The notes beneath the pieces were generated by a model that worked only from the letters and a program-made list of their open reading frames with translations, was not told the origin of the DNA and ran no database searches. The position numbers and the translations under genes were made by a program. Of a DNA stretch of 64,000 nt, positions 2,779-19,708 are shown in pieces; position 1 is the first letter of the stretch; each line of letters opens with the position of its first letter. The DNA comes from Candidatus Spongiisociaceae bacterium (GTDB lineage: Bacteria > Actinomycetota > Acidimicrobiia > Spongiisociales > Spongiisociaceae): positions 1,996,189 through 2,060,188 of the forward strand of contig OZ241841.1 in the NCBI GenBank assembly GCA_965202665.1. Reading direction: 5' to 3'.

Positions 2779-5511
2779 ATGGGAACCGAACCAGCGGAAA
2801 TAGGCGGCGGCGCCGAGGCGGGGGCGGACCCGTTGGAGGTGGTGGACGCCGAACTGCGGGCCGACATCCGGCGGTTGGGCCGGCAATTGGGCGACACGCT
2901 GGTCCGCCAGCACGGGGAGGACCTGTTGGAGTCGGTGGAGGCGGTCCGCACCCTTTCCCGGCGGTTGCGCCTCGCCGAATCGGAGGTTTCCCGGGAGCTG
3001 ACCGAACTGCTGGCCGCCGCCGATCCGGAACGGGCCAGCCTGTTGGTGGGGGCCTTTACCGTCTACTTCCATTTGGCCAATGTGACCGAGCAGGTCCATC
3101 GGGTGGAGGATATGAACGCCGAGGGGGACACCTCCGAACGGCGTTTTGCGGAAACCTTGCGCGCCCTGGTGGAGGGCGGGGTTGCGGCGGACGAAGTAGC
3201 GGCCTTGGTTAACCGCACCGCCCTCAAGCCGGTGTTCACCGCCCACCCCACTGAAGCCACACGCCGTTCGGTGTTGGAAAAGTTGGCCGAAATCGCCCAA
3301 GCCACCGCCGCCCGCAATCGCGAGCGGGCCACTCCCTCCGACCGGGCCCGCATCGATCGGCGGATCAACGAACTGTTGGAGGCCGTGTGGCAGACCGACG
3401 AGATTCGCGCCCGCCGCCCCGATCCGATCGACGAGGCCCGGTTTGTCCGTTACTACTTGGATCAGACCATCCGCGAGGCGATGCCCGCCTTGCTGGATTC
3501 CATCGCGGCCGGGATGGGGGCCATCGGAGGGGAGCTGGCCCCCGCCCACTCCCCAATTAGGTTCGGGTCATGGGTGGGCGGCGACCGGGACGGAAATCCC
3601 AATGTGACCCCGGAGATGACCGAAGCGGTGTTGCTCCAGCAACGCCGGGAATCACTGGAAATCCTCCAAGACCAGGTGCGGGAGTTGGCAAGTCAGATGA
3701 GCGTCGGTTCGCAAGTGGCGGGGGCGCCCGCCGAGATGCGCCAGTTCATCGCCCGCCACCAATCCGACTTCGCCGAAGAGTTGGCTGCCGGGGATCCGGA
3801 TCAGCCCTACCGCCTGGCCTGCTCCGTCATCTTCCAGCGGTTGCGGGAGGCCCGGGACGGGGGTCGGCGCGGCTACCGCAGTCCGGGGGAGATGCAGGCC
3901 GATTTGGCTGCGCTGGATGCGTCGTTGCGGGCCAACAAAGGTGAGTTGCTGGCCGAGGGACGGTTGGCCCGGTTGCGGCGGACGGTGGATATGATCGGGT
4001 TCCACTTGGCCGCCTTGGACATCCGCCAGCACACCGACAGCCACCACGATGCGGTGGCCGCCCTCGCCGCCCCCCTCGGCGTTGATTACGCCGCCGCCGA
4101 CCGCGCCGCCCGTATCGCTTACCTGTCCAAGGAGTTGGACAGCCCCCGCCCGCTGGCCCCGCCCGGCCGGGAAGACGTTCCGGAGGCCCTGGCCCTGTTT
4201 GAAACGTTGCGCCGATGCCTGGATGAGTTGGGCGATGAGGTGGTGGACTCCTACATTATTTCCATGACCGCCGGCCCGGACGATGTGCTGGCCGCGGTGG
4301 TTCTGGCCCGGGAGGTGGGGTTGGTGGACTTGGACCAGGGCGTTGCCCGGCTGGACTTCGTTCCCCTGTTTGAAACCATCGACGACCTGCGTTCCCTGGG
4401 CGAAACCCTTACCGCCCTGTTTGCCATTCCCGCCTACCGGAGGCTGGTGGAGGCGCGGGGCGGGGTGCAGGAGGTGATGGTCGGCTACTCCGACTCCAAC
4501 AAAGACGGCGGAATAACCACTTCGCAATGGGAGATTTACAAGGCGTTGCAGGCGATTCGGGATGTTTCCGAAGCGACCGGGGTGCGGGTGGAGGTGTTTC
4601 ACGGCCGGGGCGGTTCCATCGGCAGGGGGGGCGGTCCCACCCACGCCGCCATTCTCAGCCAGCCGGACGGGGTGTTGGACGGGGTGGTCAAATTCACCGA
4701 ACAAGGCGAGGTGATCGCCGACAAATACGGGTTGCCGGAGCTGGCCGTTCAGAACCTGGATTTGGCCCTGTCGGCTTTGGTGGAGGCCTCGGCGGGCGGC
4801 TCCGCTCCTCCGGCCGACCCGGCGGACGCCGGCCGCTGGAGCCAAATAATGGACCTGATGTCGGAGGCCGCCTATCGGGCCTACCGCGACTTCGCGCAGA
4901 CCCCCGGAATGGTGGAATATTTCGTTTCTTCCACTCCGGTGGAGGAGTTGGCCAGTCTGAACATCGGCTCCCGTCCCGCCCGCCGGGTGGAAGGCGGGGG
5001 GGATGTGGCCGACCTGCGGGCCATCCCCTGGGTGTTCGGTTGGACCCAGTCCCGCCAGATCATCCCCGGTTGGTTCGGGGTGGGGGCCGGGTTGGAGGCG
5101 GTGCGGGAAGCCGGATACGGGGAGGAGGCCTCCCGGATGTACCGGGAGTGGCCTTTTTTCCGGATGTTCGTTTCCAATGTGGAGATGACCTTGGTCAAAA
5201 CCGATCTGGGGATCGCCCGCCATTACGTAAACAACCTGACCCCCCCCGAACACCGGGGCTTGCTGGAGGTGATCTCCGCCGAGCATCGTCGCACCGTTTC
5301 CGGTTTGACGGCGGTGACCGGAGCGGAATTGTTGGCCGACCGCCCCCTCCTGCGGCGCACTTTGACCGTGCGGGACGCCTACCTGGATCCCCTGAACGTG
5401 CTTCAGGTGGAGTTGCTGTCGCGCACCCGGGCGGGCGAAGCCGACAAACACCAGCGGGCCCTGTCGCTGACCATCAACGGCATCGCCGCCGGAATGCGCA
5501 ACACCGGCTGA
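2779..5511 (+). CDS. ppc: phosphoenolpyruvate carboxylase
   Basis: The 910-aa translation has hallmark Ppc motifs ([33 protein letters not shown]-terminal [11 protein letters not shown]). Confidence 0.95.
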
Positions 5512-5531
5512 CCCGCGCCGGTCAGGTTTTA
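5508..5531 (+). terminator. hairpin terminator at the ppc stop, between convergent genes
   Basis: CTGACC-CGCGCC-GGTCAG is followed by GTTTTAAAG. It overlaps the ppc stop and the stop of the convergent gene. Confidence 0.45.
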
Positions 5532-7056
5532 AAGTAAACCGCCGTCCGCCGGGACCCTTCCATCCGCAGTCGGCCTTGGTCCCGTAACCGCCGTAGCAGG
5601 TGGGTGGCTCTGGTGGGGTCAATCAGGCACAATTCGGCTACTTCGCTCCGAGTTATGGAGCCGTTGGCCTCCACATAGTTCATCACCAGCCGTTCCCGTC
5701 TGGCCCACCTGCTGGCCCGCTGGTTTAAGCCAGTCCCAGATTCAACTGGATGGATTTGGGGCAACGGCGCTGTTGGGCCTTGGAACTGGTATTCATTTCT
5801 GGCCTCGTAAAATTCCATCAGATCCGACAGGGGAAACCGTTGGCCGTTGCGGCTCCCCTCCCTAAGTTGCCGGACCATTTGCTTGTCGGCCAATCCGGGG
5901 GCGACGCGGGCTACAACCTGGCGTGGGTCGCTACCGCCGTAATCGGGCGGCGGGCGCCCCAGCAACAGCTGTCCCTCAAAAATACGAGCGATGCCCCGTC
6001 CGGTGCGTTCCACCAGGCCGGCCCCTTTGAAAGCATCGACCAGCCGGGGATTGCGCGCCCGGGGAGGAGCGATTATTAGATTGGCGAGGGTTATCCCCTC
6101 CGGAAAGCCGCCGGGGTTGGAGACCGTTAGCGCGCCGTCGCTGATCTGCACCAGCGTCATTCCCTGATCCGCGTAGTCGCGATGGATGAGGGCGTTGGCG
6201 ATCAGTTCGCGGATGGTTACTTCGGCGAAATGAGGCAAACCGATGCGCTGGGAATCGAGATCCATTTCTTCTTCGGAGTTGCGGGCCCGCACCCGGTCGG
6301 ATATTTCCGCCATTGCCTTGAGCAACGGGATGCGCCGTATCTCATTGACCCGTACCTGCAGATGATCCAGCTCTTGAAAGCCGACTTCGTAGGCGGGCAG
6401 ATGTTTGGCGATGGCCTTTTCTTTGCCGAATAACAACAAAGCCCCTACCGTGATGTTTTCCTCCGAGTCGGTGAGGTTCAGGGCTTGCAGAAGGTCATGG
6501 TCGGAGAGACTGGTTAGGGTTTTGTCGCCGTCTGATTCCGCCATCTCCCGGAAACGGGAAAATTCGGCATCGGAAAGATCGCTCTTGGTCGCCGCAGATA
6601 AAGTTACGCTGGAAAAATCCAGCACGCCGATGCTGCCCGCTCGCCCCACCACTTATGGGGCCGCATAGGAAGACACTCCGGTTGCCCGTGTATGTCCAGC
6701 GTTCGGCGTAGGAACTTGCCGGACTTGGTGGAAACAACATCCTGTCCAACCGGGACCTTAACGGCGATCACTTCCTTGCCGTTGATGGGTACCACCTGTA
6801 CGGCGGCATCTACCGCTGGTTCGGTGCGGCTGGCGATCAACGCTTGCAGTCGCTCTGGATCTGTGTGCCTGCCGTGACGAGGTTCAGCTCCGGTGATATT
6901 TCCTTGGTCGTCAACCCCGACCAGAAGCCAGCCTCCGCGTCCGTTGGCTAAACAGACCACCGATTCCACTAGATCCTTGTCGTTTGCGCGACTTTTGAAC
7001 TCGACGTTGAGCGTCTCGCCTTCGGAAACCAGGCCCTGGAGAGTTGTAGTGTCCAT
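5522..7056 (-). pseudogene. AlbA_2 (Schlafen-like) + HATPase_c_4 + C-terminal wHTH putative regulator (RecG-like family), interrupted by a frameshift near 6640..6655
   Basis: Track ORFs 6604..7056 (AlbA_2 N-domain: ETLNVEFKS...VVCLANGRGGWLLVGVDD) and 5522..6652 (ATPase-like plus wHTH) overlap by about 50 nt in different frames. The total span is not a multiple of 3. A join of ...PMRPH|VVGRAGSIGVLDF restores a typical family member. Confidence 0.7.
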
Positions 7057-7298: not shown

Positions 7299-8423
7299 TT
7301 AAAATTTTACGGGGGTGATGAAAGGGAGGGGGTGGGCGACGGCGGTGCGGGGGAGGCCGTCCGCCTCGGTTTGCAGTCGGGTTTCGGGTTGGGCGCAGGG
7401 GCTTTCCACGAACACGTAGCCCAGGTTGGTCTCGAAGCGGGGGGAGTAGCAGGCCGACGTCAACACCCCCACCGTCCGTCCTCCGGCGGTTACCGGGCGG
7501 TGTTCGGGGAAGGCCGTTATAGGCGGGCCGTCGATGTAGGCGCCGGTCAGCAGGCGATGGGGCGGGCGCTCCGCCAACTCCTCCAAGGCGGCCCGTCCCA
7601 CGAAGTCCGTCCCGGGCGGGAACTCAACCAGCCTCCCGAACCCCAACTCGTAAGGGTTCACCGAATCGTTCATGTCGGTTCCGTAGGAAAGAATGCCCCC
7701 CTCCATGCGGCGAATCTGGTTGGGGGAGCCGGGTTGCGCTCCATAGGGTTCCCCCGCCGCGAACACCCGGTCCCACAGCCGCCCTCCCTCCGCTGCATCG
7801 GTCAGGAAAACCTCGTAGCCGAACTCGCCCGACCAGCCGGTGCGCGACACCAAAAGTTCCATTCCGTCCAGACGGGTCCAGGCCGCCCGGTAGTAGCCCA
7901 GGTTGGCGATGTCCTCCCCGAACAGATCGGTCGCCAAAGCTTTTGATTTGGGTCCCTGGATCTGCAGGGGCGAAACGTCGGGCTCGCGCACTTCCACTGC
8001 AAATCCCCGTTCGGCGGCTATGGCCTGCGCCCACAGCAACACATCCCGGTCGGCCAGCGACAGCCAAAACCGGTCTTCGGCCACTCGCAACAACACCGGA
8101 TCGTTCACCACGCCCCCCCGGTGATTGCACAGAAACGTGTAGCGGGCCCGGGCCACCTCCATCCGGGAAACATCCCGGGTGCACAGGTACTGGGTGAGCG
8201 CCAAGGCGTCCCGCCCGCGGATTTCCACCTGCCGCTGGCATCCCACATCCCAGACGGCCACGTCCTCCACCAAGGCCCGGTATTCCTCCAGCGTCCCGGC
8301 GAATCGGCTGGGCAGAATCATATGGTTGTAGACCGTGGCCCCTTTGGCCCCGGCGGCCAAGGCCCGCTCCAAAAAAGGGGAGGGGCGGAGACGGGGGGTG
8401 CGTTCCAGGGCCAGGTCATCCAT
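7299..8423 (-). CDS. aminomethyltransferase (GcvT) family protein, probable THF-dependent demethylase
   Basis: The 374-aa translation has GcvT-fold features (WDVGCQRQVEIRG, LQIQGPKS, SRTGWSGEFGYEVF, RRMEGGILSYGTDM). Confidence 0.8.
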   Translation of the reverse strand: MDDLALERTPRLRPSPFLERALAAGAKGATVYNHMILPSRFAGTLEEYRALVEDVAVWDVGCQRQVEIRGRDALALTQYLCTRDVSRMEVARARYTFLCNHRGGVVNDPVLLRVAEDRFWLSLADRDVLLWAQAIAAERGFAVEVREPDVSPLQIQGPKSKALATDLFGEDIANLGYYRAAWTRLDGMELLVSRTGWSGEFGYEVFLTDAAEGGRLWDRVFAAGEPYGAQPGSPNQIRRMEGGILSYGTDMNDSVNPYELGFGRLVEFPPGTDFVGRAALEELAERPPHRLLTGAYIDGPPITAFPEHRPVTAGGRTVGVLTSACYSPRFETNLGYVFVESPCAQPETRLQTEADGLPRTAVAHPLPFITPVKF

Positions 8424-9576
8424 CAGGTTTCAAATCTCCCGATTCGGAGTCGGCGGGGGCGGAGGATTTCCGGTGGCGGTAGGCCAGCCAGAAGGTAAAG
8501 GCCAAAGCCCCGGTCGCCAGCAGCGAAACCGCTGGCCGCAGGGTGTTGATGCGGTCGAACCACGCTCCTACCAGGGCCACCGTAACCCCGCCGATGGCCG
8601 CCGCGGCGGTCAGTCCCAAGGTTACGGCGCGCAACGCCAACGGCGGGGGCATTTCCCGGTCGGCGGCCAGGCCCATCAATCCCCACACCGGATAGTGGAA
8701 GGCCGCGTAGCAGAGGGCCGTCGCCGCCAAGGCCGCGTATGACCAGAAGTTGGCCGCGGCCAGCAACGCCGCCGTATAGATGGAGGCGGTTACCACTATG
8801 GCGCGCACCGGCCCGGCGCGGTCGGCCAAAGACCCGATGGGGGCGGCCGTCGCCAGAACCGTCAACCCGATCAGCCACCACAGGGCGGCGGCCGCCAACG
8901 GTCCCGCCCCCAACTCGTCGACGGCCGCCACCGTCAAATAGACCCCCATCGTGAAACCGGTTACCGCGGTGGACACCGAGGTGATGATCACCGTCCGTCC
9001 GGCGGTCATCCCCCACACCGCCCGCAACGAACCCGACCGCTCCGGCGGGGGCCCCACCGGGGGGAGGGGCCGCCTGATCATGATGGGGACCGCCGCCGTC
9101 GCTACCGCCGCGCACCCGGCGGCGAACAGGAAGGCCAGTCGCCAATTCTCCGTTCCGGTCAGGGACCAGATGAAGAAACCGTTCAGGGCGGTCCCGATGC
9201 CCGTGCCTGAAGAGGCCATGCTCATCACCAGCCCCCGCCGTTGCGCGTCCGTCACCCGCCCGGCGGACTGCAGGGTGGAGGCCCAGTTGAGGGGGGCCGA
9301 CATACCGAGGGTGACCACGCACAGGGCCAGCACCGGGGCGGAACGGACCGACGACACCAAGAGAAGCCCGGCCCCGGTCAGGGCGTAGGTTCCCATCAAC
9401 AGCCTCCGCAAACCGAAGCGGGCCGCCACCCGGGGGGTCAGGGCCGCCCCCAGGCTGTAGGCGAACATGGCGGCCGACACCGCCAAGCCCAGCGCCCCGT
9501 AGCCGGAGTCCATGGAACGCGAGATGCGGGGCAACATGGCGGGAATCAAACCCATCCCGAACCCGTGGGTGACCAT
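8416..9576 (-). CDS. MFS transporter (YbfB/YjiJ-like)
   Basis: The 386-aa protein is polytopic and hydrophobic. The in-frame upstream sequence (..LKAPAAGVLFGWGI) is also TM-like but has no ATG/GTG/TTG. The true start may therefore be non-canonical, for example CTG at 9633 overlapping the upstream TGA. Confidence 0.7.
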   Translation of the reverse strand: MVTHGFGMGLIPAMLPRISRSMDSGYGALGLAVSAAMFAYSLGAALTPRVAARFGLRRLLMGTYALTGAGLLLVSSVRSAPVLALCVVTLGMSAPLNWASTLQSAGRVTDAQRRGLVMSMASSGTGIGTALNGFFIWSLTGTENWRLAFLFAAGCAAVATAAVPIMIRRPLPPVGPPPERSGSLRAVWGMTAGRTVIITSVSTAVTGFTMGVYLTVAAVDELGAGPLAAAALWWLIGLTVLATAAPIGSLADRAGPVRAIVVTASIYTAALLAAANFWSYAALAATALCYAAFHYPVWGLMGLAADREMPPPLALRAVTLGLTAAAAIGGVTVALVGAWFDRINTLRPAVSLLATGALAFTFWLAYRHRKSSAPADSESGDLKPDG

Positions 9577-9629: not shown

Positions 9630-10580
9630 TCAGGAGCGGGCCCTCCGCAGAACTTCGTCGATGGGGGTGGATGCCAAGTCGCCCACCTCCTGCACGTATT
9701 CATACCCGAACCGCCCTTTGATGCACAGGTGGCCGGAGGTTATCGCATGGTCCATGGGGGAAGTCACCTTGACGATCCGGTTGTCCTGCACATGCAGTTC
9801 CAGGTTGCAGCCCACCCCGCAGTAGGAGCAGACGGTCCGCGTCACGGTCTGACGTTCCTCCGCCCACATCTCCGCCTCCCGCAGTTCGTGTTCGCTGCGG
9901 AACATAAGAGCCCCGGTGGGGCAAACCCCGATGCAGTTACCGCAGAACACGCAGGCCGAGTCGGTCAGCCCGGTGTCGAATTCGGTGGAAATGCGGGCCT
10001 CGAATCCCCGCCCTGCCACCGCGATGGCGAATGTATTCTGGGCGTCTTCGCCGCAGGCCTCTACGCACTTGTAGCAGAGTATGCACCGGGAATAGTCCCT
10101 GATGTACAAGGCGTTGTCCACTTTTACCGGTTGCCGCACGGTTTCCGCCTCCTGTCCGTTGACGGGGGGATGATGGCCCGCCGTCCGCCGATCGCGGTCC
10201 TCGGCGGGGGGAGCGGGCGGCCCATAACGGCGCGGGTCGCATCCGTACTCTTCCATCCAGCGGCGGGTTTCCCCGTCTACCAGATCCAGGTCCGTGGAGG
10301 AGGCCAGAAATTCCAGCACCATACGCCGGGAAAGACGCACCCGTTCGCTGTCGGTGAAGACCGCCATCCCCTCCTCCGCCGGGCGGCTGCAGGAGGGGAT
10401 CAGGGTGCGGGAGCCCTCCACTTCCACCACGCACACCCGGCAGACGTTCACCGGGGTCAAGTTTTCCAGATAGCAGAGGGTGGGTTGACCGAGGCCCGCC
10501 GTCCGGCAGGCGTCCAGAATGGTGTCCCCGGCGGCGACGGTCACCTCCGTTCCGTCGATGGTGATGGTCGTTTCACCCAT
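9630..10580 (-). CDS. formate dehydrogenase Fe-S subunit: NuoG-like 2Fe-2S plus 4Fe-4S domains ending with the Mo-enzyme N-terminal 4Fe-4S motif (N-terminal part of a canonical FdhA/FdsA)
   Basis: ITIDGTEVTV..TLCYLE..NVCRVCVVEV is the 2Fe-2S region. CILCYKCVEAC and CVFCGNCIGVCP are ferredoxin motifs. CSYCGVGCNLELHV...GHLCIKGRFGYEYV is the MopB 4Fe-4S domain, after which the protein ends. Confidence 0.85.
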   Translation of the reverse strand: MGETTITIDGTEVTVAAGDTILDACRTAGLGQPTLCYLENLTPVNVCRVCVVEVEGSRTLIPSCSRPAEEGMAVFTDSERVRLSRRMVLEFLASSTDLDLVDGETRRWMEEYGCDPRRYGPPAPPAEDRDRRTAGHHPPVNGQEAETVRQPVKVDNALYIRDYSRCILCYKCVEACGEDAQNTFAIAVAGRGFEARISTEFDTGLTDSACVFCGNCIGVCPTGALMFRSEHELREAEMWAEERQTVTRTVCSYCGVGCNLELHVQDNRIVKVTSPMDHAITSGHLCIKGRFGYEYVQEVGDLASTPIDEVLRRARS

Positions 10581-12375
10581 CGCCCGACTCCAACAGTCCC
10601 AGTTCCGCCGCCGACCGGATGGCGGAGGAGGCGGTGTGCCCCAGTCCGCAGATGGAAGCGTCCGCCATCACCTGCGCCACATCCGAGAACAGATCCCACT
10701 CCCACTCCCCTCCGGCCAGGCGCCGTTCCAGCAGTTCTTCCTGCCGCACCGTTCCCACCCGGCAGGGGACGCACTGCCCGCACGATTCGTCCCGGAAGAA
10801 ACGGGCGATGCGGCGCGCGGCGTCTCCAAAGTCGGTTCCGGGCCCGAACGCGCACACCACCCCCGACCCCAGGGTCGCCCCCCGGGCCCGGGCGTCCTCG
10901 AAGGTGAGGGGCATGTCAAACTGGTCGGGGTCGACGAACACCCCCGCCGCCCCGCCCAGCAGAACCGCCGCCGCCCCGCCCCCGACGGTTCCGCCCGCCT
11001 TTTCCAGCAACCCGCCCAAGGTTTCCCCGAACTCCACCTCGTACAGCCCCGGCCGCCCCACATCCCCCGCTAGGCAGAACAATTTGGTTCCGGTGGAATC
11101 GGGGGTTCCCACCGCCGCGAAGGCCGCCCCTCCCCGCAATACGATTTCCGGCACGTTGAGCAAGGTTTCCACGTTGTTAATGACCGTGGGCCGCCCGAAC
11201 AGCCCCGCTACGGTGGGGAAAGGGGGCTTGTTGCGGGGCTCGCCCCGCTTGCCCTCGATGGAATTCATCAGGGCCGTTTCCTCCCCGCAGATGTAGGCCC
11301 CGCCGCCCCGCCGGATCTCAATGTCAAACGCCCGTCCCGACCCGGCGACGTCGTTTCCCAGCAGGCCGGCCCGCCGCGCCCCGGCTACGGCCTTCTCCAT
11401 TCTTTCCGTCGCCAAAGGATACTCGGCCCTTATGTACAGGTATCCGATCTCCGCCCCCACGGCCAGCCCGGCGATGGTCATGGACTCCGTCAGGGCGAAC
11501 GGGTCGCCTTCCATCAAAACCCGGTCTTTGAAGGTGCCCGGCTCGGACTCGTCGGCGTTGCAGATCAGATAACGGGGGCGGTCGGGGGAGCGGGCCACCG
11601 CCTCCCATTTGATCCCGGCCGGGAAAGCCGCCCCGCCCCGCCCCCGCAACCGGGAGGCCTTGACTTCTTCGATAACCCGCTCCGGGCCGATTTCGATCGC
11701 CCGGCGCAGGGCCGCGTAGCCCCCCGTCCGCCGATAATCATCCAGCGAAAGGGGATCCGCCGTCCCTATTCGGCGCAGCAACCGCAACCCGGCCTCACCC
11801 TGTTGGGGAAGGGGCGGCGGGGCCGGGGGAGGGGGGGCTTCCGAGTCGAGGCAGGCCGCCACATAAGCGGCGTCGGCCCCGGTCGCGGCCAAGTCGCGCC
11901 TACCCGCCCGTTGGATGAAAGCGGCCGGGGCCCGGTCGCACTGGCCCAGGCAGGGGCTGGGATGGACATCGCCCCGCCCCCGCAGCGAAGCCAGAATCTC
12001 CGTACCGCCCCTCCGCCGGCACACTACGTCGTCGCAGATGTGGGCCACCCGGCGGGGACGTTCCGTCAACGACAGCAGAGCGTAGAAACTGGCCACTCCG
12101 TAGGCTTCCGCCGGGGGGACGATCAGCCGCTCGCATATGTAATTGAGGGCCCCCCGGCTGATCCAGCCCACTTGATCGGAAACGGCGTGCAAAGCGGGGA
12201 GCAACAGATGTCGTCGTTCGATCATGCGCCGGTATCCACCCGGGGCGGTGCGCATCATCGGCGAGGGGCCGGCCTCCCCGTTTTCGGCCGGGTTCGCCCC
12301 CTCCTCCGTTGCGGGCGCGCCCAAGAGCCGGTCGACCGCCTCCCGCTCCTCGGCGGTGGGGGCGGCGGACATCAA
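10573..12375 (-). CDS. NAD(H)-binding formate dehydrogenase subunit, NuoE-like/NuoF-like fusion
   Basis: The N-terminal half resembles NuoE (ASFYALLSL...HICDDVVC...CLGQCDRAPA). The C-terminal half resembles NuoF (GRGGAAFPAGIKW, CNADESEPGTFKDR, ESCGQCVPCR). Confidence 0.9.
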   Translation of the reverse strand: MMSAAPTAEEREAVDRLLGAPATEEGANPAENGEAGPSPMMRTAPGGYRRMIERRHLLLPALHAVSDQVGWISRGALNYICERLIVPPAEAYGVASFYALLSLTERPRRVAHICDDVVCRRRGGTEILASLRGRGDVHPSPCLGQCDRAPAAFIQRAGRRDLAATGADAAYVAACLDSEAPPPPAPPPLPQQGEAGLRLLRRIGTADPLSLDDYRRTGGYAALRRAIEIGPERVIEEVKASRLRGRGGAAFPAGIKWEAVARSPDRPRYLICNADESEPGTFKDRVLMEGDPFALTESMTIAGLAVGAEIGYLYIRAEYPLATERMEKAVAGARRAGLLGNDVAGSGRAFDIEIRRGGGAYICGEETALMNSIEGKRGEPRNKPPFPTVAGLFGRPTVINNVETLLNVPEIVLRGGAAFAAVGTPDSTGTKLFCLAGDVGRPGLYEVEFGETLGGLLEKAGGTVGGGAAAVLLGGAAGVFVDPDQFDMPLTFEDARARGATLGSGVVCAFGPGTDFGDAARRIARFFRDESCGQCVPCRVGTVRQEELLERRLAGGEWEWDLFSDVAQVMADASICGLGHTASSAIRSAAELGLLESGDG

Positions 12376-12383
12376 CCGCAGGT

Positions 12384-14284
12384 CTATGGGGAAACTCCGT
12401 GCGGGACCGCCCGCTCAATGCGCACCGCGGTGGCTTTGAACTCGGAGGTGCCCGATTTTGGGTCCCAGGCGTCGGTGGTGAGCAGGTTGACATCCGCTTC
12501 GTCCGGGTCGTGGCAGCTCATAAAAGCCAACCCGCCCGCAACGACCGATGGAAGAACACCGGAACGGCGATGGAACCCCGGCGGGAGATGACATTCACCA
12601 GCTCGCCTTCCCGCAGTCCCATATGCTCCCCGTCCTCGGGGGCGATTTCCACCGCCGCCGCACCCCGCAAGGGAGAGTCGTATCCCGCCGACTGCACCCC
12701 GGTGTTGTAGGAGTCCAAGCGGCGGCCGGTGGTGAGGCGGATCGGGTATTCCCCGGACAGGCCGTCGCGCGGGGGGGCCCAAGGGGCGGGTGTGAAAGAG
12801 GCGGGCGGGCGGGTCAGGGGGCGCTCCCACAGGTCGCCGTGCAGGAACTGCGTGCCGGGATGCTTCTCGTCCGGGCAGGGCCACTGAATGCCCCCGGACG
12901 ACTCCAACCGGGTATAGGACATTCCGCGGTGCATGGGGGACAGGCTGCGCACTTCTTCCCACACTTCCTCGGCGGAGGGGAAACCCCACCCGCGGCCCAT
13001 CCGTTCCGCCAACCCGGAGATGATGTCCAGGTCGTCCCGGGCCTGGCCGGGGGGGTGAAGGGCCCGGCGCACCCGTTGCACCCGTCGCTCCGAGTTGGTG
13101 ACGGTGCCTTCCGATTCGGCCCATCCGGCGGCGGCCGGCAACACCACATCGGCCATTTGGGCGGTGCGGGTCAGGAAAATGTCCTGCACCACCAGAAAAT
13201 CCAGGCCTTCCATAACTTCCCGGACATGGGCGGCCCGGGCTTCGGACTGGGCCGGGTTTTCCCCGATGATGTACAGGCCGGTCAGTTCCTTGCGTTCCAT
13301 CGCCTCCAGCATGAGGGTGAGGTGCCAGCCGATGCGGGGCGGGACGGGCGCTCCCCAGCGGGTTTGGAACGGGGCGCGGAGGTCCGGGTCCTCCACATCT
13401 TGGAAACCGGGCAGTTTGTTGGGTATGGCTCCCATATCGCCCCCGCCCTGCACGTTGTTCTGCCCCCGCAACGGAACCAGGCCCGAACCGTAACGGCCCA
13501 CATGCCCGGTGAGCAGGGCCAAGTTGATCAGGGACAGCACGTTGTCGGTGGCGTTGTGATGTTCGGTGATGCCCAATGTCCAGCAGATCTGGGCTGATTT
13601 GGCTGTTGCGTAATCGCGGGCCATCTGTTGGATGACGGCCGCCGGGACGCCGGTCACCTGCTCGCCGCGCCGCAAAGTCCACTCGTCCACCGCCGCCGCG
13701 TAGCCGTCGAATCCGGTGGTGGAGCGGGAAATGAAGTCCGAGTTATGCAGGCCGGCCGCGATTATCTCCCGTCCCACCGCGTTGGCTAAGGCGATGTCCG
13801 ACCCCACGTCGATTCCCAGCCAGGTATCCGCCCACTTGGTGGAGCTGGTGCGACGGGGATCCACCGCGTACATTTTCGCCCCCGCCCGCAAGCCCCGCAT
13901 CAGGTGGTGAAAAAAGATGGGGTGCGCCTCGCGGGCGTTGGAACCCCACAACAGAACCAGGTCGGTGGTTTCGATTTCTTGGTAGGAGGAAGTTCCGCCT
14001 CCCACTCCCAGCGCGGTCGCCAGACCGGCGACCGAAGGAGCGTGTCAGGTGCGGTTGCAGGAGTCGATGTTGTTGGACCCCATCACCGCCCGGGCGAACT
14101 TCTGCGCCAGGTAGTTGACCTCGTTGGTGGCCTTGGAGCAGGAAAACATCCCAAAGTCATTACCCCGGTGCCCGGACAGCCCGCGGGCCGCCTCATCCAG
14201 GGCTTGTTCCCATGAGGCCTCCGTCAACTCCCCGCCGCGTCGCACCAAAGGCGCGGTCAGCCGGACATTGTACGGTTTTGCCAT
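12384..14284 (-). CDS. formate dehydrogenase catalytic molybdopterin subunit with in-frame UGA (selenocysteine) and an apparent 1-nt frameshift near 12529..12537
   Basis: Track ORFs 14045..14284 and 12518..14005 share one frame and are separated only by TGA 14045..14047. This gives ..NIDSCNRT-U-HAPSVAGLATALG, the Sec/Cys active-site motif of FdhA/FdhH. The conserved C-terminus (GLAFMSCHDPDEADVNLLTTDAWDPKSGTSEFKATAVRIE) is read in another frame, at the tail of track ORF 12384..13682. Confidence 0.8.
14015..14047 (-). promoter_or_regulatory. UGA codon plus SECIS-like hairpin
   Basis: The mRNA reads UGA-CACGCUCCUUC-GGUCGCC-GGUCU-GGCGACC. A perfect 7-bp stem with a GGUCU loop starts 11 nt after UGA. 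It uses a GGU Gly codon that looks uncommon in this window. Confidence 0.65.
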
Positions 14285-14345
14285 TTTTCACCTCCTTCCC
14301 CGGGAAATTTCCCGCGCCGGATTGGGGATGGGCTCCCCCCGGCTC

Positions 14346-16112
14346 TCAGAACAGGCCGACGATGCGCCCCTCCTCGTCCAGATCCACATCCATGTAGGCG
14401 GGTTTGGTTCCCAGCCCCGGCATAGTGCGGATCTCGCCCAGCAAGGGCACCAGGAAACCGGCCCCCACCGCCGCCCGCACTTCCCGCACCGGTACGGTGA
14501 ACCCGGAGGGGCGCCCTTTCAGGGTGGGGTCGTGGGACAGGGAAAGGTGGGTTTTGGCCATGCAAACGGGCAGGTAGCCGAACCCGGTGCGTTCCAAGTC
14601 GGCGATCTGCCCGTTGGCGGCCGGGGAGTACTCCACCCCGGCCGCTCCGTATACGTCGCGGGCCACGGCCTCTATTTTTTCCTTGATGGACAACTCCAGA
14701 GGATACAGGAAACGGAAATCCCGTTCGCCCTGCGCCGCATCCGCCACCGCCTCCGCCAAGCGCAAAGCCCCCTTCCCCCCCTCGGCCCAGTGGTGGGCGG
14801 TGACGGCGGCCGTCGCCCCCGATTCGAGGGCCGCCCGTTCCACCGCCTCCAACTCGTGCTGCGTGTCGGTGGGGAAGGCGTTCACGGCCGCCACCACCGG
14901 CACTCCGAAGCGCCGGGCGGTCTCAATGTGCGCCGTCAGGTTGCCCAAGCCGGCCTGCAGCAACGGCAGGTTCTCCTGGGTGTAAGCCGAATCCAATCTC
15001 CGCCCCGCCACCACCCGCGGTCCCCCCCCGTGGGTTTTCAAGGCGCGGACGGTGGCCACCAAAACCACCGCATCCGGCGCCAGCCCCGAAGCCCGGCATT
15101 TGATGTTGAAGAACTTCTCCATTCCCATATCGGCCCCGAACCCGGATTCGGTTACCACGTATTCTCCCAGATGCAGGGCCAGCCGATCGGCCAGGATGGA
15201 GGAGTTGCCGTGGGCGATGTTGGCGAACGGCCCGGCGTGCACGAAGGCCGCTTGGCCCTCCAGGGTTTGCATGAGCGTGGGATGCAGGGTGTCTTTCATC
15301 AAAACCGCCACCGCCCCCGCCACTCCCACATCGTCCAAGGTGATCGGTTCGCCGGCCTTGTTGCGGCCGATTACCACCCGCCCGCAACGTTCCCGCAGGT
15401 TGCGCAGGGCGGAGGGGTAATCGTTGCCGTCTGCCAAGGCCAAGATGGCCATCAGTTCGGACGCCACCGTGATGTCGTATCCGGTTTCCCGGGGGCGCCC
15501 GTCCAGTCGCCCGCCCAACCCGACCACGACGTTGCGCAGCGAACGGTCGTTTATGTCAACCACCCGCCGCCATTCGGTGCGGAACACGTCGATGTCCAGC
15601 CTTTCCAAACCGACCGCCTCCAGTTGATCATCGGACATGCGCCGTTCGTGGTACCAGCGGGCGTCGATGGCGGCCGCGGCCAGGTTGTGGGCGGCGCTTA
15701 TGGCGTGGATGTCCCCGGTCAGGTGCAGGTTGAACTCGTCCATGGGGACCACTTGGCTGTAGCCGCCCCCGGCCGCCCCCCCTTTGATGCCGAAGGTGGG
15801 GCCCATGGAGGGCTGGCGGATGGCGGCGACGGCCCGTTTGCCCAACGCCCCCAGGCCCTGGGTGAGGCCGATGGTGGTGGTGGTTTTGCCTTCTCCCAGC
15901 GGGGTGGGGGTGATGGCGGTTACGTCGATGTATTTGCCCGTCGGACGGGAGCCAACTCGTTTCAGGATGTCCAAGTGCACTTTTGCTTTGGCGTGCCCGT
16001 AGGGGATCAGCTCGTCCGGTTCTATGCCCACCGAGTCGGCGACTTCGGTTATCGGACGCACCCGGGCCGCTTGGGCGATGGCCAGGTCGGAGGGTACTTT
16101 GGCGTAGGGCAT
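14346..16112 (-). CDS. fhs: formate--tetrahydrofolate ligase
   Basis: The true start is ATG 16112..16110, preceded by AAGGAAG. MPYAKVPSDLAIAQ...TPTPLGEGKTTTTIGL... is canonical Fhs. The first 111 codons of track ORF 14346..16445 are not coding. Confidence 0.95.
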   Translation of the reverse strand: MPYAKVPSDLAIAQAARVRPITEVADSVGIEPDELIPYGHAKAKVHLDILKRVGSRPTGKYIDVTAITPTPLGEGKTTTTIGLTQGLGALGKRAVAAIRQPSMGPTFGIKGGAAGGGYSQVVPMDEFNLHLTGDIHAISAAHNLAAAAIDARWYHERRMSDDQLEAVGLERLDIDVFRTEWRRVVDINDRSLRNVVVGLGGRLDGRPRETGYDITVASELMAILALADGNDYPSALRNLRERCGRVVIGRNKAGEPITLDDVGVAGAVAVLMKDTLHPTLMQTLEGQAAFVHAGPFANIAHGNSSILADRLALHLGEYVVTESGFGADMGMEKFFNIKCRASGLAPDAVVLVATVRALKTHGGGPRVVAGRRLDSAYTQENLPLLQAGLGNLTAHIETARRFGVPVVAAVNAFPTDTQHELEAVERAALESGATAAVTAHHWAEGGKGALRLAEAVADAAQGERDFRFLYPLELSIKEKIEAVARDVYGAAGVEYSPAANGQIADLERTGFGYLPVCMAKTHLSLSHDPTLKGRPSGFTVPVREVRAAVGAGFLVPLLGEIRTMPGLGTKPAYMDVDLDEEGRIVGLF

Positions 16113-16265: not shown

Positions 16266-17534
16266 ATGGGCAAGGGGGGCGAACATGCCGCGGGAGAGAG
16301 GAGCGGAGTGTCTGAATCTAACGGGGACGCTATCGTCCGCTTGGAGAACGTATATAAGATTTTCGGGCCGCAACCGCACGGTCGGGCTTTTGACCTGACG
16401 CGGTCCGGAGTCGGCAAAGACGAGGTGTTGCGGCAGTCGGGGCATGTGGTGGGCCTCAACGATGTAAACTTTTCAGTTCACCAAGGGGAGATTTTCGTGG
16501 TGATGGGTTTGTCTGGATCGGGCAAATCCACCGCCATCCGCACCGTCAACAAGTTGTTCCACACCACCTACGGACATGTGTGGGTGGACGGAACCGATGT
16601 GCAGACTTTGGACGGCAAAACCTTGCAATCGTTTCGCCGGGAGAAGATGGGGATGGTGTTTCAGCATTTCGCCCTCTTCCCGCATCGGACGGTCATCTAC
16701 AACGTGGGCTACGGGCTGAAAGTGCAGAAGGTGGACAAAAGGGACCGGGATGCGGCTTCTATGAAAGCGCTGTCCCTGGTGGGGTTGGAGCCCTACGCCG
16801 ACAACCTGCCCCGGGAACTGTCGGGGGGCATGCAGCAACGGGTGGGCTTGGCCCGGGCGCTGGCCTCCGACCCTGACATTTTGCTGATGGACGAAGCCTT
16901 CTCCGCGTTGGATCCGCTTATCCGCCGCCAGATGCAGGACGAGATGATGGAAATCCAGAACGAGTTGCACAAGACCATTCTGTTTATCACCCACGATCTG
17001 AACGAGGCCCTGCGCATCGGGGATCGGGTGTGCATCATGAAAGACGGAGCGGTGGTGCAAATCGGCACCCCCGAGGAAATACTGACCGAACCCGCCACCG
17101 GTTACGTGGCCGAGTTCGTCCAAGATGTGGACCAGGGGCGGGTAATCGAAGTGCGGGAGGTAATGACCCGGCCCGATCCGTTGCAGGCCGGAATGACCCT
17201 GACGGAGGCGGTGTCCCACATCGGGGACCGCACCGGGGCCTTCGTGGTGGATGGGGACGGCCGTCCCGCCAGCCTGCTCACCCTGTCCGACGCGTTGCGG
17301 GCCGCCGGGACGGGATCCTCCGACATGAGCGCCGCCCTGCGCCAGGACTTCGACCAGACCGACGTCCACACCTGCCTGAACTCGGTGTACGCCGCCGCCG
17401 GACGGGGGTTGCCGATAGCGGTGGTGGACGAGTCGGGGGTGTTGGTGGGCAACCTGGATCCCCGGTTGATCATGGAGGAGATGGGACGGGTGGAGCAACT
17501 AATCGACGGCTTTGAACGGGAGACGTTCCTATGA
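16266..17534 (+). CDS. proV: glycine betaine/proline ABC transporter ATP-binding protein with C-terminal CBS domains
   Basis: Walker A GLSGSGKST, signature LSGGMQQRVGLARAL, Walker B ILLMDEAFSALD and a CBS-like tail. An alternative in-frame start is GTG 16308, behind GAGAGGAG. Confidence 0.9.
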   Translation: MGKGGEHAAGERSGVSESNGDAIVRLENVYKIFGPQPHGRAFDLTRSGVGKDEVLRQSGHVVGLNDVNFSVHQGEIFVVMGLSGSGKSTAIRTVNKLFHTTYGHVWVDGTDVQTLDGKTLQSFRREKMGMVFQHFALFPHRTVIYNVGYGLKVQKVDKRDRDAASMKALSLVGLEPYADNLPRELSGGMQQRVGLARALASDPDILLMDEAFSALDPLIRRQMQDEMMEIQNELHKTILFITHDLNEALRIGDRVCIMKDGAVVQIGTPEEILTEPATGYVAEFVQDVDQGRVIEVREVMTRPDPLQAGMTLTEAVSHIGDRTGAFVVDGDGRPASLLTLSDALRAAGTGSSDMSAALRQDFDQTDVHTCLNSVYAAAGRGLPIAVVDESGVLVGNLDPRLIMEEMGRVEQLIDGFERETFL

Positions 17535-19708
17535 GTTGGATAACCAGGTTCGCCAATTTGCTGGCCCAGGCCGGCGGCGCCGAAGGAGTTGAAGGGGGGG
17601 TGGGAATTCGGGACAACAAATTGTTGGACGAGTGGCGCATACCTTTTGGCGACTGGGCCGAACAAGCGGTTTTCTGGATGGACAACAACCTGCAGACCCT
17701 GCTGGATATCGCCAACTGGCCTTTTGAAAGGATGATCAGCTTCCTGGTGCGGGACATTCTCAGCAACGTGTCCTGGGTGTGGGTGGTGCTGGTGATGATG
17801 ATCGTCGCCACCCTGGTGCGCAACATCAAAGTGGGGGTGTTCGTGGGGGTGTCCCTTTTCATATGCGGAATCTTGGGAGACATTTATTGGCTGGAGACGG
17901 CCCGCACTATCGGGTTCGTAGGGGTGGCGGTGGTGTTGTGCGTGATCGTGGGGATACCGATCGGCATCGCCTGCGGCCGGTTTGACGGCATCTGGAAGGT
18001 GGTGCGGCCGGTTTTGGACGCCATGCAGGTTATCCACTCCTTCGTCTATATGTTGCCGTTTATTTTCTTCTGGGGAATCGGCGAGGTGTCGGCCACGATG
18101 GTAACCATGGTGTTCGCCCTCCCTCCGCTAATCCGCCTCACCAATCTGGGAATCCGCCAAGTGCCCGCCGATGTGGTGGAAGCCTCCCGGGCCTACGGGG
18201 CTTCGGAACGGAGGGTGTTGTTCGATGTTCAGATTCCGCTGGCCCGGCCCGCCATTATGACCGGCATCAACCAAACCTTGTTGCTGTCCATTTCCATGTT
18301 GGGAATCGCCGCCATTATGGGGGCGGGGGGTTTGGGGCGCCTGCTGTTCCAAGCCATCAACAACCAGGACGTATCCCAAGCGGCCGCCGCCGGGTTGGCT
18401 TTCTTTTTGGTGGCGGTGGTGCTGGACCGGATGTCCCAGCGGGAGGAAACCGATTCCGCCAACCTGTTCCGCCGCATCCGCCTGGCTTGGGCGCACCGTC
18501 GCGACCCGGAGGTCCTGCTGGAGAATCAAGAGGCCTCCGCAGTGGTCAAGTTCAAGGAAACCCACCGCTACGCTCCGGTGACGGCCGCCGAGCGCCTGCC
18601 GATGGTGCTGGCCGTGGCGGGCGGCGCCTTGGCTTTGTTGTCGGTGTTTCTGCCTTGGACCGCCGATGCGGGCAAGATGAGCGCTTACGGACGATGGGCG
18701 GATCTTTCCACGGAAGGCGAGATGGCGGGGATGGTGTTCAGCGGTTTGCATTCCTCCGGAGGCAGCTGGTTCGGCATTTCCATTCTGTTTTTCAGCATTT
18801 TCGCCATTTTGGCGGTGATCGTAGGCTGGGCCCGTCCGGGGCGCGGTCCCCGCTGGCTGGCGGCGGATGGAGCGGTGATCGCCTCCTTGGGGATTTTGAT
18901 TCTGGCCGTCGCTCATTTGCTGGCCCGGCCCGCCTCCGCGTCCATTCCCAACGCTCTGCATCCCGGTACCGGACTGGGGGTGGTTTTGGCGTTGGCGGGG
19001 GGCTTGGCGGCGGTCGCCGGGTCCATTTGGTGGATGTGGTTAGCCGATCACACCCCGTTGCACCCGCTCCGCTCCGAGGTGGCTTGGGGCAGGTTGATCG
19101 GGGCGGGGGTGGCTATTTTGGTTTTGGTAATAGGAATGTTTTCCGGTTGGAGTTTCGACGAACGGGAACGGGAAATCATCACTCCGGAATTGCAGGCGCA
19201 GATCGATCAACTGATGTGGGAGGCGGAGCAACCGGGGGCCGACTTGGGGGCGATCGCCACTGAGTTGCTGGTGTTGCGGGCGAAGGCCATCCGTTCGGAG
19301 CGATTGGTAACGGACGGGTTGAGCAGCCAAGGACCGGGTTTGGGCCTGTGGGGGCTGATCGTCGGGGCGCTGGGGTTTTTGGCCAGTCTGTTCGCCATCG
19401 GCCTATTCGGTTCCGATGAACGAAGACTCTGGCATTGGAGCACGATTACGGCCGGGTTGGGGATGGGAGCCGCTTTGATCGGATTCGCCTGGGTTTTCAC
19501 CCATGTCCGGTCGGCCGACCCCAACTATCTGACCGGAATCGGGGCCTTTTTAACCATGGCCGGCGGAATGTTCCTGGTGGCTTCCAACATGTCGGTGCTG
19601 AAAGAGTTCCGACGAGCCAAGGTGTACGACGATCCTCAAGTTGAATCAGGGCCGGACGGCCAAGCGGCGGAGCAGACCGCAGAGGAGCGGGCGGAGGCCC
19701 TGGTTTGA
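17531..19708 (+). CDS. proW: glycine betaine ABC permease (ProW/OpuAB-like, about residues 1-300) fused to a ~400-aa C-terminal domain with ~8 predicted TM helices
   Basis: The N-terminal part has the BPD permease EAA region (EASRAYGASERRVLFDVQIPLARPAIMTGINQ). The remainder is hydrophobic helices plus one ~60-aa charged helical loop and an acidic tail. There is an ATGA overlap with proV. Confidence 0.85.
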   Translation: MSWITRFANLLAQAGGAEGVEGGVGIRDNKLLDEWRIPFGDWAEQAVFWMDNNLQTLLDIANWPFERMISFLVRDILSNVSWVWVVLVMMIVATLVRNIKVGVFVGVSLFICGILGDIYWLETARTIGFVGVAVVLCVIVGIPIGIACGRFDGIWKVVRPVLDAMQVIHSFVYMLPFIFFWGIGEVSATMVTMVFALPPLIRLTNLGIRQVPADVVEASRAYGASERRVLFDVQIPLARPAIMTGINQTLLLSISMLGIAAIMGAGGLGRLLFQAINNQDVSQAAAAGLAFFLVAVVLDRMSQREETDSANLFRRIRLAWAHRRDPEVLLENQEASAVVKFKETHRYAPVTAAERLPMVLAVAGGALALLSVFLPWTADAGKMSAYGRWADLSTEGEMAGMVFSGLHSSGGSWFGISILFFSIFAILAVIVGWARPGRGPRWLAADGAVIASLGILILAVAHLLARPASASIPNALHPGTGLGVVLALAGGLAAVAGSIWWMWLADHTPLHPLRSEVAWGRLIGAGVAILVLVIGMFSGWSFDEREREIITPELQAQIDQLMWEAEQPGADLGAIATELLVLRAKAIRSERLVTDGLSSQGPGLGLWGLIVGALGFLASLFAIGLFGSDERRLWHWSTITAGLGMGAALIGFAWVFTHVRSADPNYLTGIGAFLTMAGGMFLVASNMSVLKEFRRAKVYDDPQVESGPDGQAAEQTAEERAEALV

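Follow-up and report, generated by a model that had tools for sequence, protein, structure and literature searches.

Organisation of the cassette and division of the alpha subunit

The window analysed here (the whole stretch of 64,000 nucleotides (nt) at positions 1,996,189 to 2,060,188 of contig OZ241841.1, from a Candidatus Spongiisociaceae bacterium) carries on its minus strand three genes which very probably encode a single formate dehydrogenase whose alpha subunit is shared between two polypeptides. A preliminary description, made from the DNA letters and their open reading frames (ORFs), had placed these genes at 14284..12384, 12375..10573 and 10580..9630, and had proposed that the two halves of the alpha subunit are encoded in permuted order around a NuoE/F gene. 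Both statements are confirmed, the second by the domain content, by alignments and by the arrangement seen in 75 of 89 loci. The three genes and two segments of the iron-sulfur (Fe-S) subunit are the following.

12384..14284, minus strand: catalytic subunit gene (FdhA3-like), with MopB domains II-IV only; 633 codons once corrected
10573..12375, minus strand: NuoE-NuoF fusion gene (FdhB3-like); 600 amino acids from the TTG at 12375, or 599 amino acids from the ATG at 12372
9630..10580, minus strand: Fe-S subunit gene (FdhC3-like); 316 amino acids
9690..9848, minus strand: Molybdop_Fe4S4 domain with the pterin-proximal cluster (A1/FS0), residues 245-297 of the Fe-S subunit
9633..9689, minus strand: C-terminal tail of the Fe-S subunit, EVGDLASTPIDEVLRRARS, residues 298-316

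The catalytic protein displays only the Pfam domains Molybdopterin and Molydop_binding, and no 4Fe-4S domain (PF04879 is absent). The active site of the MopB formate dehydrogenases is present: selenocysteine (Sec) 80 and His81 are found in the motif CNRT-U-HAPS, and the arginine in the motif RGQNNVQG, which starts at residue 273. The Fe-S protein (316 residues) contains the domains Fer2_4, a two-cluster Fer4 domain and Molybdop_Fe4S4 (residues 245-297), and corresponds to the N-terminal third of FdsA followed by the 4Fe-4S domain with which a catalytic subunit usually begins. Its [2Fe-2S] site is composed of C36, C47, C50 and C64, its two ferredoxin-type [4Fe-4S] sites of C166/169/172/176 and C210/213/216/220, and its MopB 4Fe-4S site of C251/254/258/286. 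All 16 cluster cysteines are invariant in the alignment of relatives. A His-ligated cluster was also searched for: the Fe-S protein has no match to PF10588, and the motif H-x3-C-x2-C-x5-C is absent in the alignment with FdsA. The third protein is a fusion of NuoE and NuoF with the domains 2Fe-2S_thioredx (PF01257), Complex1_51K (PF01512) and NADH_4Fe-4S (PF10589). It includes the four cysteines of the NuoE type (C-x4-C-x22-C-x3-C), the flavin mononucleotide (FMN) motif GRGGAAF and the NuoF 4Fe-4S motif CGQCVPC...C, and Pfam detects in it no extra ferredoxin-type (Fer4) cluster domain.

The division of the alpha subunit was located with three kinds of template. In the model TIGR01591 (Fdh-alpha), positions 1-53 correspond to residues 249-301 of the Fe-S protein and positions 53-672 to residues 8-624 of the catalytic protein, with scores of 56.2 and 617.8 bits, respectively, both below the cutoff of 666.25. 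On the solved FdsA (9wxb_B; also 6tg9_A), residues 4-297 of the Fe-S protein fall on positions 25-304 (E = 1e-52) and residues 8-624 of the catalytic protein on positions 308-932. The fused homologues P0364 and P0368, picked from a search of a representative library with the Fe-S part that was dominated by fragments, give an identical end-to-end fit of both halves. These alignments indicate that the two halves are complementary and non-overlapping, also against full-length FdsA. The predicted alpha subunit is broken precisely where the MopB 4Fe-4S domain meets the RLTxPL segment; the preliminary description had set the break at this place (RLTAPL in the window), and TIGR01591 and FdsA agree with it.

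A derivation of the two halves from different MopB subfamilies was considered and finds no support: taken by itself, the 4Fe-4S domain is about as close to YjgC as to FdhF and FdsA, and the fused templates that fit one half also fit the other.

The end of the Fe-S protein had been described as a short unrelated tail. This tail (residues 298-316; consensus ELGDLATTPIDEVLRRAR) is kept in the relatives labelled Acidimicrobiia or Nitriliruptoria (loci L001-L005, L009-L020, L022, L026 and L038); it is absent from the other lineages.

Selenocysteine codon of the catalytic gene

The catalytic gene is interrupted by an in-frame TGA, which is followed by a hairpin resembling a selenocysteine insertion sequence (SECIS).

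14045..14047, minus strand: in-frame TGA, selenocysteine codon 80, in CNRT-U-HAPSVAGL
14004..14041, minus strand: SECIS-like hairpin; lower helix GCUCC/GGAGU, upper helix GUCGCC/GGCGAC, apical loop GGUCU

Of 65 distinct sequences examined, 62 have TGA as codon 80 and three have a cysteine codon there. Sec also occupies position 80 of the catalytic subunit of Actinomycetospora, and in intact relatives the gene is called as 79 amino acids, the TGA and 540 amino acids. According to the fold, the upper helix of the hairpin begins 13 nt past the UGA. In an alignment of the 62 TGA-containing genes the apical loop GGUCU is invariant, 96% of the hairpin cells are paired (99% for the upper helix) and three of the six upper-helix pairs show compensatory changes; the observed covariation score was reached by none of 500 shuffles. 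The SECIS motif is missing from all three versions with a cysteine codon. On sequence evidence, the catalytic gene is a selenoprotein gene, characterised by a TGA in the active site and by a covarying SECIS-like hairpin that has been lost in the cysteine versions. No Rfam family was detected at the gathering threshold in the whole 64 kb, where the hairpin was matched by no model, and ARAGORN detected no tRNA gene in the same 64 kb. Neither the selenocysteine codon nor the frameshift presented below figured in the preliminary description.

The three catalytic genes with a cysteine codon (TGT or TGC) come from Thermopolyspora flexuosa (L006), Saccharopolyspora antimicrobica (L007) and Streptomyces thermodiastaticus (L008). 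In two of these three loci, fdhD comes after the cassette. The Saccharopolyspora cassette adjoins a gene for a thiamine pyrophosphate enzyme and a coenzyme A (CoA) transferase gene (CoA_transf_3), both assigned by Pfam only. These neighbours are possibly an oxalyl-CoA decarboxylase and a formyl-CoA transferase acting in oxalate breakdown, a context that would point to formate oxidation.

Conservation of the cassette, origin of its order and state of the window copy

Relatives of the Fe-S protein are encoded in at least 583 stretches of a collection holding one genome per species. The taxonomic listing covers the best 80 of these stretches (at least 583), which come from Actinomycetota, Chloroflexota, Acidobacteriota, Planctomycetota, Gemmatimonadota, Binatia, Dormibacterota, Eisenbacteria, Armatimonadota and Bacillota. 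For the Fe-S protein, more than 100 close homologues with the same domain set were found, at lengths of 314 to 392 amino acids. The homologues of the catalytic protein are either of about 540 amino acids, where the gene call is broken at the TGA, or of 633-652 amino acids; the Fe4S4 domain is found in none of them, and they occur in cultured Saccharopolyspora, Thermopolyspora, Streptomyces, Nonomuraea, Kutzneria and Actinomadura. A search of plasmids recovered no split form, only proteobacterial fused FdsA with at most 36% identity.

The same split, with the genes in the order catalytic, NuoEF, Fe-S on one strand, was found in 75 of 89 loci, which belong to Actinomycetota, Chloroflexota, Acidobacteriota, Planctomycetota and further phyla. 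Thirteen of the remaining 14 loci are cut by contig ends, and there is one real exception (L077). Among the isolate genomes, the cassette is present in Thermopolyspora, Saccharopolyspora, Streptomyces, Pseudonocardia and Actinomycetospora. In the loci examined, the stop of every Fe-S gene falls 6-41 codons past the motif CxKGRFG. The arrangement is not particular to this genome; it marks a widespread enzyme type, whose split was noted in 2020.

Some loci deviate in detail. In a metagenome-assembled genome (MAG) of Acidobacteriota (L032, 2105-3981), the catalytic gene is 46% identical to that of the window, against 68% for NuoEF and the Fe-S protein. This gene has the TGA and is devoid of the Fe4S4 domain, and the catalytic partner may have been replaced in this locus, as judged from the identities. 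Inserts of 0.7 to 3.6 kb separate the catalytic gene from nuoEF in seven loci (L028, L043, L045, L054, L069, L070 and L072), mostly from MAGs labelled Chloroflexota, so that the cassette is not always one tight operon. The genes in the two inserts examined (L054 and L072), among them a sizeable opposite-strand ORF, are unrelated; neither a remnant of a lost half nor an extra subunit was detected in these two.

Concerning the origin of the rotated order, the preliminary description had suggested a tandem duplication of a nuoEF-fdhA unit followed by the loss of the outer halves. We consider this scenario as tentative. As the model requires, rotating either canonical order (EF-A or A-EF) cyclically gives the observed order catalytic, EF, Fe-S, and the junction is exact. 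However, rotations make up two of the five non-canonical orders, so that gene order alone is weak evidence. The tail of the Fe-S protein was also compared with the catalytic protein: over about 616 offsets tried, the best one aligns it with catalytic residues 16-33, just past the junction, with a score of 12.9 against 5.0 for the next offset. Yet 92 of 500 column shuffles (18%) equal this maximum, and the relic is therefore not significant; the tail was rejected as a proof of a lost catalytic half. Moreover, the tail is limited to one subclade, no intermediate arrangement was seen among the 89 loci, and even the nearest fused relatives that were found have an identity of only 37-46%. An origin by tandem duplication and loss is thus only weakly consistent with the data.

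It is also possible, and to be held with the same reserve, that the alpha subunit was broken at the domain boundary and one part relocated, or that an FdhF-like catalytic gene joined a HoxU/NuoG-like Fe-S gene to which the 4Fe-4S domain was transferred. The catalytic half is nearer to the FdhF type than to FdsA (506 bits with the FdhF-type structure 7qv7, 410 bits with FdsA), whereas the Fe-S half is closest to FdsA. The insertions in Chloroflexota between the catalytic gene and nuoEF show that the cassette tolerates rearrangement. On the other side, the about equal matches of the 4Fe-4S domain to YjgC, FdhF and FdsA give no sign of a different subfamily, and the exact complementarity of the halves favours a single fused ancestor.

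An operon-level circular permutation through tandem duplication and reciprocal loss, of which the tail of the Acidimicrobiia type would be a faded relic, seems unlikely to us. If it were true, the position of the first [4Fe-4S] cluster off the catalytic chain would possibly be a selected feature of a large and mostly selenium-dependent class of formate dehydrogenases, found in largely aerobic soil and marine phyla. One possible benefit would be that a catalytic subunit loaded with Sec and pterin matures alone before docking.

The window copy of the catalytic gene deviates from its relatives at one position.

12531..12533, minus strand: G-run with a 1-nt deletion, GGG here and GGGG in near-identical contigs

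The window reads GGGCGGG where the contigs of L001 and L002 read GGGCGGGG. Owing to this deletion, the segment from 14284 to 12384 is not one open frame as read, and the last 46 codons before the true stop are out of frame. L001 and L002 are metagenome contigs 99.3% identical to the window, with an intact catalytic frame. A programmed frameshift at 12533..12531 was ruled out, because these near-identical relatives keep a continuous frame. That the lesion is real, and the enzyme non-functional in a genome where the operon decays, is quite improbable. The missing G does truncate and misread the final 46 codons, which include the pterin-binding C-terminal domain, but the two 99.3%-identical contigs are independent and intact, and the catalytic gene has no further lesion. 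In addition, the only other coding indel over the 17 kb shared with L001 and L002 is likewise a 1-nt deletion specific to the window (around 6655) that breaks a conserved gene, a pattern typical of assembly errors. Both deletions are most likely sequence errors, to judge from these contigs. Near 6655, the window has CAT-AAG where L001 and L002 have CATGAAG, and the deletion yields two ORFs (5522..6652 and 6604..7056, minus strand) in place of the single protein of 511 amino acids (SLFN_AlbA_2 / HATPase_c_4) encoded in L001 and L002.

Identity of the enzyme and comparison with known systems

The operon very probably encodes a cytoplasmic, three-subunit, Sec-containing formate dehydrogenase with a Mo/W-bis-pterin site, linked to nicotinamide adenine dinucleotide (NAD(H)), of the FDH3 (FdhA3B3C3) type. 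This assignment builds on the domain content, the cluster ligands, the complementary junction, the recoding signal and the conservation of the cassette established above; from them we infer the physical assembly of the subunits, NAD+ as the acceptor and the direction of the reaction. In the formate dehydrogenase of Rhodobacter capsulatus (RcFDH), the direct chain runs from the bis-molybdopterin guanine dinucleotide (bisMGD) through A1, A2, A3, A5 [2Fe-2S] and B6 to FMN, and the His-ligated cluster A4 is off-pathway at the dimer interface (PMC7171172). The on-pathway clusters A1, A2, A3 and A5, the NuoF cluster and the FMN site are all present by motif in the three proteins of the window. As far as motifs can tell, the split enzyme retains exactly the on-pathway cluster set of RcFDH.

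In the proposed mechanism, formate would be oxidised at the Sec-ligated metal of the catalytic subunit, itself without any Fe-S cluster. The electrons would cross a subunit interface, from the pterin to the first cluster ([4Fe-4S]) of the Fe-S subunit, and then pass via its two ferredoxin-type clusters and its [2Fe-2S] cluster to the [4Fe-4S] cluster of NuoF, FMN and NAD+. The enzyme would thus be a natural example of a Mo/W-pterin site whose electrons move to another subunit in their very first transfer. The preliminary description had deduced that the active-site subunit must be assembled from two polypeptides; with NuoEF as a further partner, this follows from the divided alpha subunit and the rotated order, and it agrees with data on a cultured relative, Actinomycetospora chiangmaiensis, where all three FDH3 subunits were detected in the proteome, with a 2.2-3.1-fold increase on 2-hydroxyisobutyrate (PMC7176365).

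An electron-bifurcating formate dehydrogenase of the HylABC-FdhF2 or Bfu type is highly unlikely. The separate HylA-like Fe-S subunit and the NuoF-like subunit do resemble this class, and HydB and StnB are among the NuoF-type matches of the NuoEF protein. However, NuoEF is devoid of extra ferredoxin-type cluster domains, which argues for a simple NAD-linked enzyme rather than a bifurcating one. The His-ligated cluster of the HydA/HylA type is absent too, the catalytic subunit lacks the 4Fe-4S domain (PF04879) that enzymes of the HylABC-FdhF2 or Bfu type have, and the host lineages are mostly aerobic groups. An assembly artefact or a chimera at 12.3-12.4 kb or 10.5-10.6 kb is practically out of the question, because the same junctions recur in 75 loci from different studies, isolate genomes included, and nothing was found in its favour.

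Several points weigh against the assignment to an FDH3 enzyme. The published support for the assembly of FDH3 into one complex and for its use of NAD+ is proteomic and physiological only, and the kinship of the window proteins to the published FDH3 was traced via congeneric Actinomycetospora species. The catalytic gene is frameshifted as read in the window, and neither sel genes nor a tRNA-Sec gene are found within the 64 kb. In the exception L077, a MAG of Chthonomonadaceae, the Fe-S gene (6001-6936, 67% identity) has neither partner within the 12.9-kb locus. Finally, the differing best matches of the two halves may reflect a mosaic ancestry.

The cassette is included in a series of genes on the minus strand, to which the following neighbours belong.

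14346..16112, minus strand: formate-tetrahydrofolate ligase (fhs), Pfam FTHFS; gene call of 588 amino acids in L001 mapped to the window
8416..9576, minus strand: MFS transporter (Pfam), directly downstream of the Fe-S gene
7299..8423, minus strand: GcvT-like aminomethyltransferase, overlapping the end of the MFS gene; Pfam GCV_T and GCV_T_C in L001

The series fhs, catalytic, NuoEF, Fe-S, MFS and GcvT-like is nearly gapless. The spacing between fhs and the catalytic gene is of 61 nt (14285..14345) and contains a strong ribosome-binding site, AAGGAGG, ahead of the catalytic ATG at 14284. The start of the Fe-S gene and the stop of nuoEF overlap by 8 nt (10573..10580), which suggests translational coupling. 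The neighbouring fhs, GcvT-like and MFS genes and a divergent ABC transporter suggest that formate oxidation ends a tetrahydrofolate-linked breakdown of one-carbon (C1) units. The divergent transporter adjoins the operon on the plus strand (16266..19708) and consists of an ATPase with CBS domains and a permease of 725 amino acids. A phosphoenolpyruvate carboxylase gene lies further downstream of the operon (2779..5511). These two neighbours are also present in L001 and L004.

In the window itself, the operon is ordinary and conserved, and it contains one probable sequencing error. The enzyme type is present in hundreds of species of Actinomycetota, Chloroflexota, Acidobacteriota, Planctomycetota, Gemmatimonadota and other phyla, and its annotation is poor: gene calls usually break the catalytic gene at the TGA, neither half attains the cutoff of any NCBIfam model, and the Fe-S subunit goes under the names "2Fe-2S cluster-binding protein", "HndD" or "YjgC". 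Names derived from IMG, "NAD-dependent formate dehydrogenase iron-sulfur protein" and "catalytic subunit", are attached to some members. Recognising the three genes as one formate dehydrogenase corrects the reconstructions of formate and C1 oxidation in these groups, and the natural cysteine variants of cultured thermotolerant actinomycetes are candidates for expression in CO2/formate biocatalysis.

Among the characterised systems, FdsABG(D) of Rhodobacter capsulatus and Cupriavidus necator (PDB 6tg9/6tga, 9wxb, 6vw7) has the same cofactor chain as the window enzyme. However, FdsA is a single chain of 958 amino acids with Cys instead of Sec, whereas the window has two genes around nuoEF. FdsA also possesses the extra His-ligated A4, FdsG and FdsB are not fused, the genes follow the order fdsGBACD and the identity to the window proteins is only about 35-40%. 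Fdh1AB (tungsten FDH1) of Methylorubrum extorquens AM1 (PDB 7e5z, 7vw6) is soluble and NAD-linked, with a beta subunit that is a NuoE-NuoF fusion as in the window; its alpha subunit, in contrast, is one chain of 989 amino acids with Cys instead of Sec. The formylmethanofuran dehydrogenase FwdB/FwdD offers a precedent, as a MopB enzyme shared between two polypeptides with the break at a domain boundary. The part detached there is the C-terminal domain IV, and the catalytic polypeptide retains the 4Fe-4S domain, whereas in the window it is the N-terminal 4Fe-4S domain that is detached. The MopB split of the FwdB/FwdD type in Methanothermobacter is noted in PMC7171172. The HylABC-FdhF2 complex of acetogens and clostridia shares with the window a separate NuoG/HydA-like Fe-S subunit and NuoE- and NuoF-like subunits. 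In that complex FdhF2 keeps its own 4Fe-4S domain, HylB has extra ferredoxin clusters and NuoE and NuoF are unfused (PMC5736913), whereas the window has a catalytic subunit without 4Fe-4S domain and a fused NuoEF without extra ferredoxin clusters.

The closest system is FDH3 of Actinomycetospora chiangmaiensis DSM 45062 (Rohwerder 2020, Front Microbiol 11:691; PMC7176365), with FdhA3, FdhB3 and FdhC3 of 640, 614 and 316 amino acids and U80 (accessions WP_084681743.1, WP_018332443.1 and WP_018332444.1). According to the same paper, FdhB3 (614 amino acids) is a fusion of NuoE and NuoF, FdhC3 (316 amino acids) is a separate homologue of the N-terminal Fe-S domain of the alpha subunit, and formate removal by A. 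chiangmaiensis is selenium-dependent. The window subunits are of 633, 600 and 316 amino acids, and both systems have Sec80, the NuoE-NuoF fusion and a separate Fe-S protein similar to the N-terminus of FdsA. Homologues of the Fe-S protein are found in at least eight other Actinomycetospora species, and A. corticicola shares the gene order and Sec80 with the window, its catalytic subunit being 63% identical to the window's. The window differs by its host, a metagenomic lineage of the Acidimicrobiia type and therefore of a different class, by the joining of the operon to the fhs, MFS and GcvT-like genes, and by the clade-specific C-terminal tail of the Fe-S protein. The 2020 paper is silent on the location of the MopB 4Fe-4S domain, the missing His-ligated cluster, the rotated order and the taxonomic spread. 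In the literature we found no account of a 4Fe-4S domain on the small subunit, an absent A4, a cyclic rotation or a spread over several phyla, and none of these four points figures in a 2026 review of metal-dependent formate dehydrogenases. The window is a further example of the FDH3 enzyme type, with a split already noted in 2020, and not a new kind of system; to the description of this type the present analysis adds the selenocysteine recoding signal, the probable sequencing error, the inventory of clusters and the taxonomic breadth.

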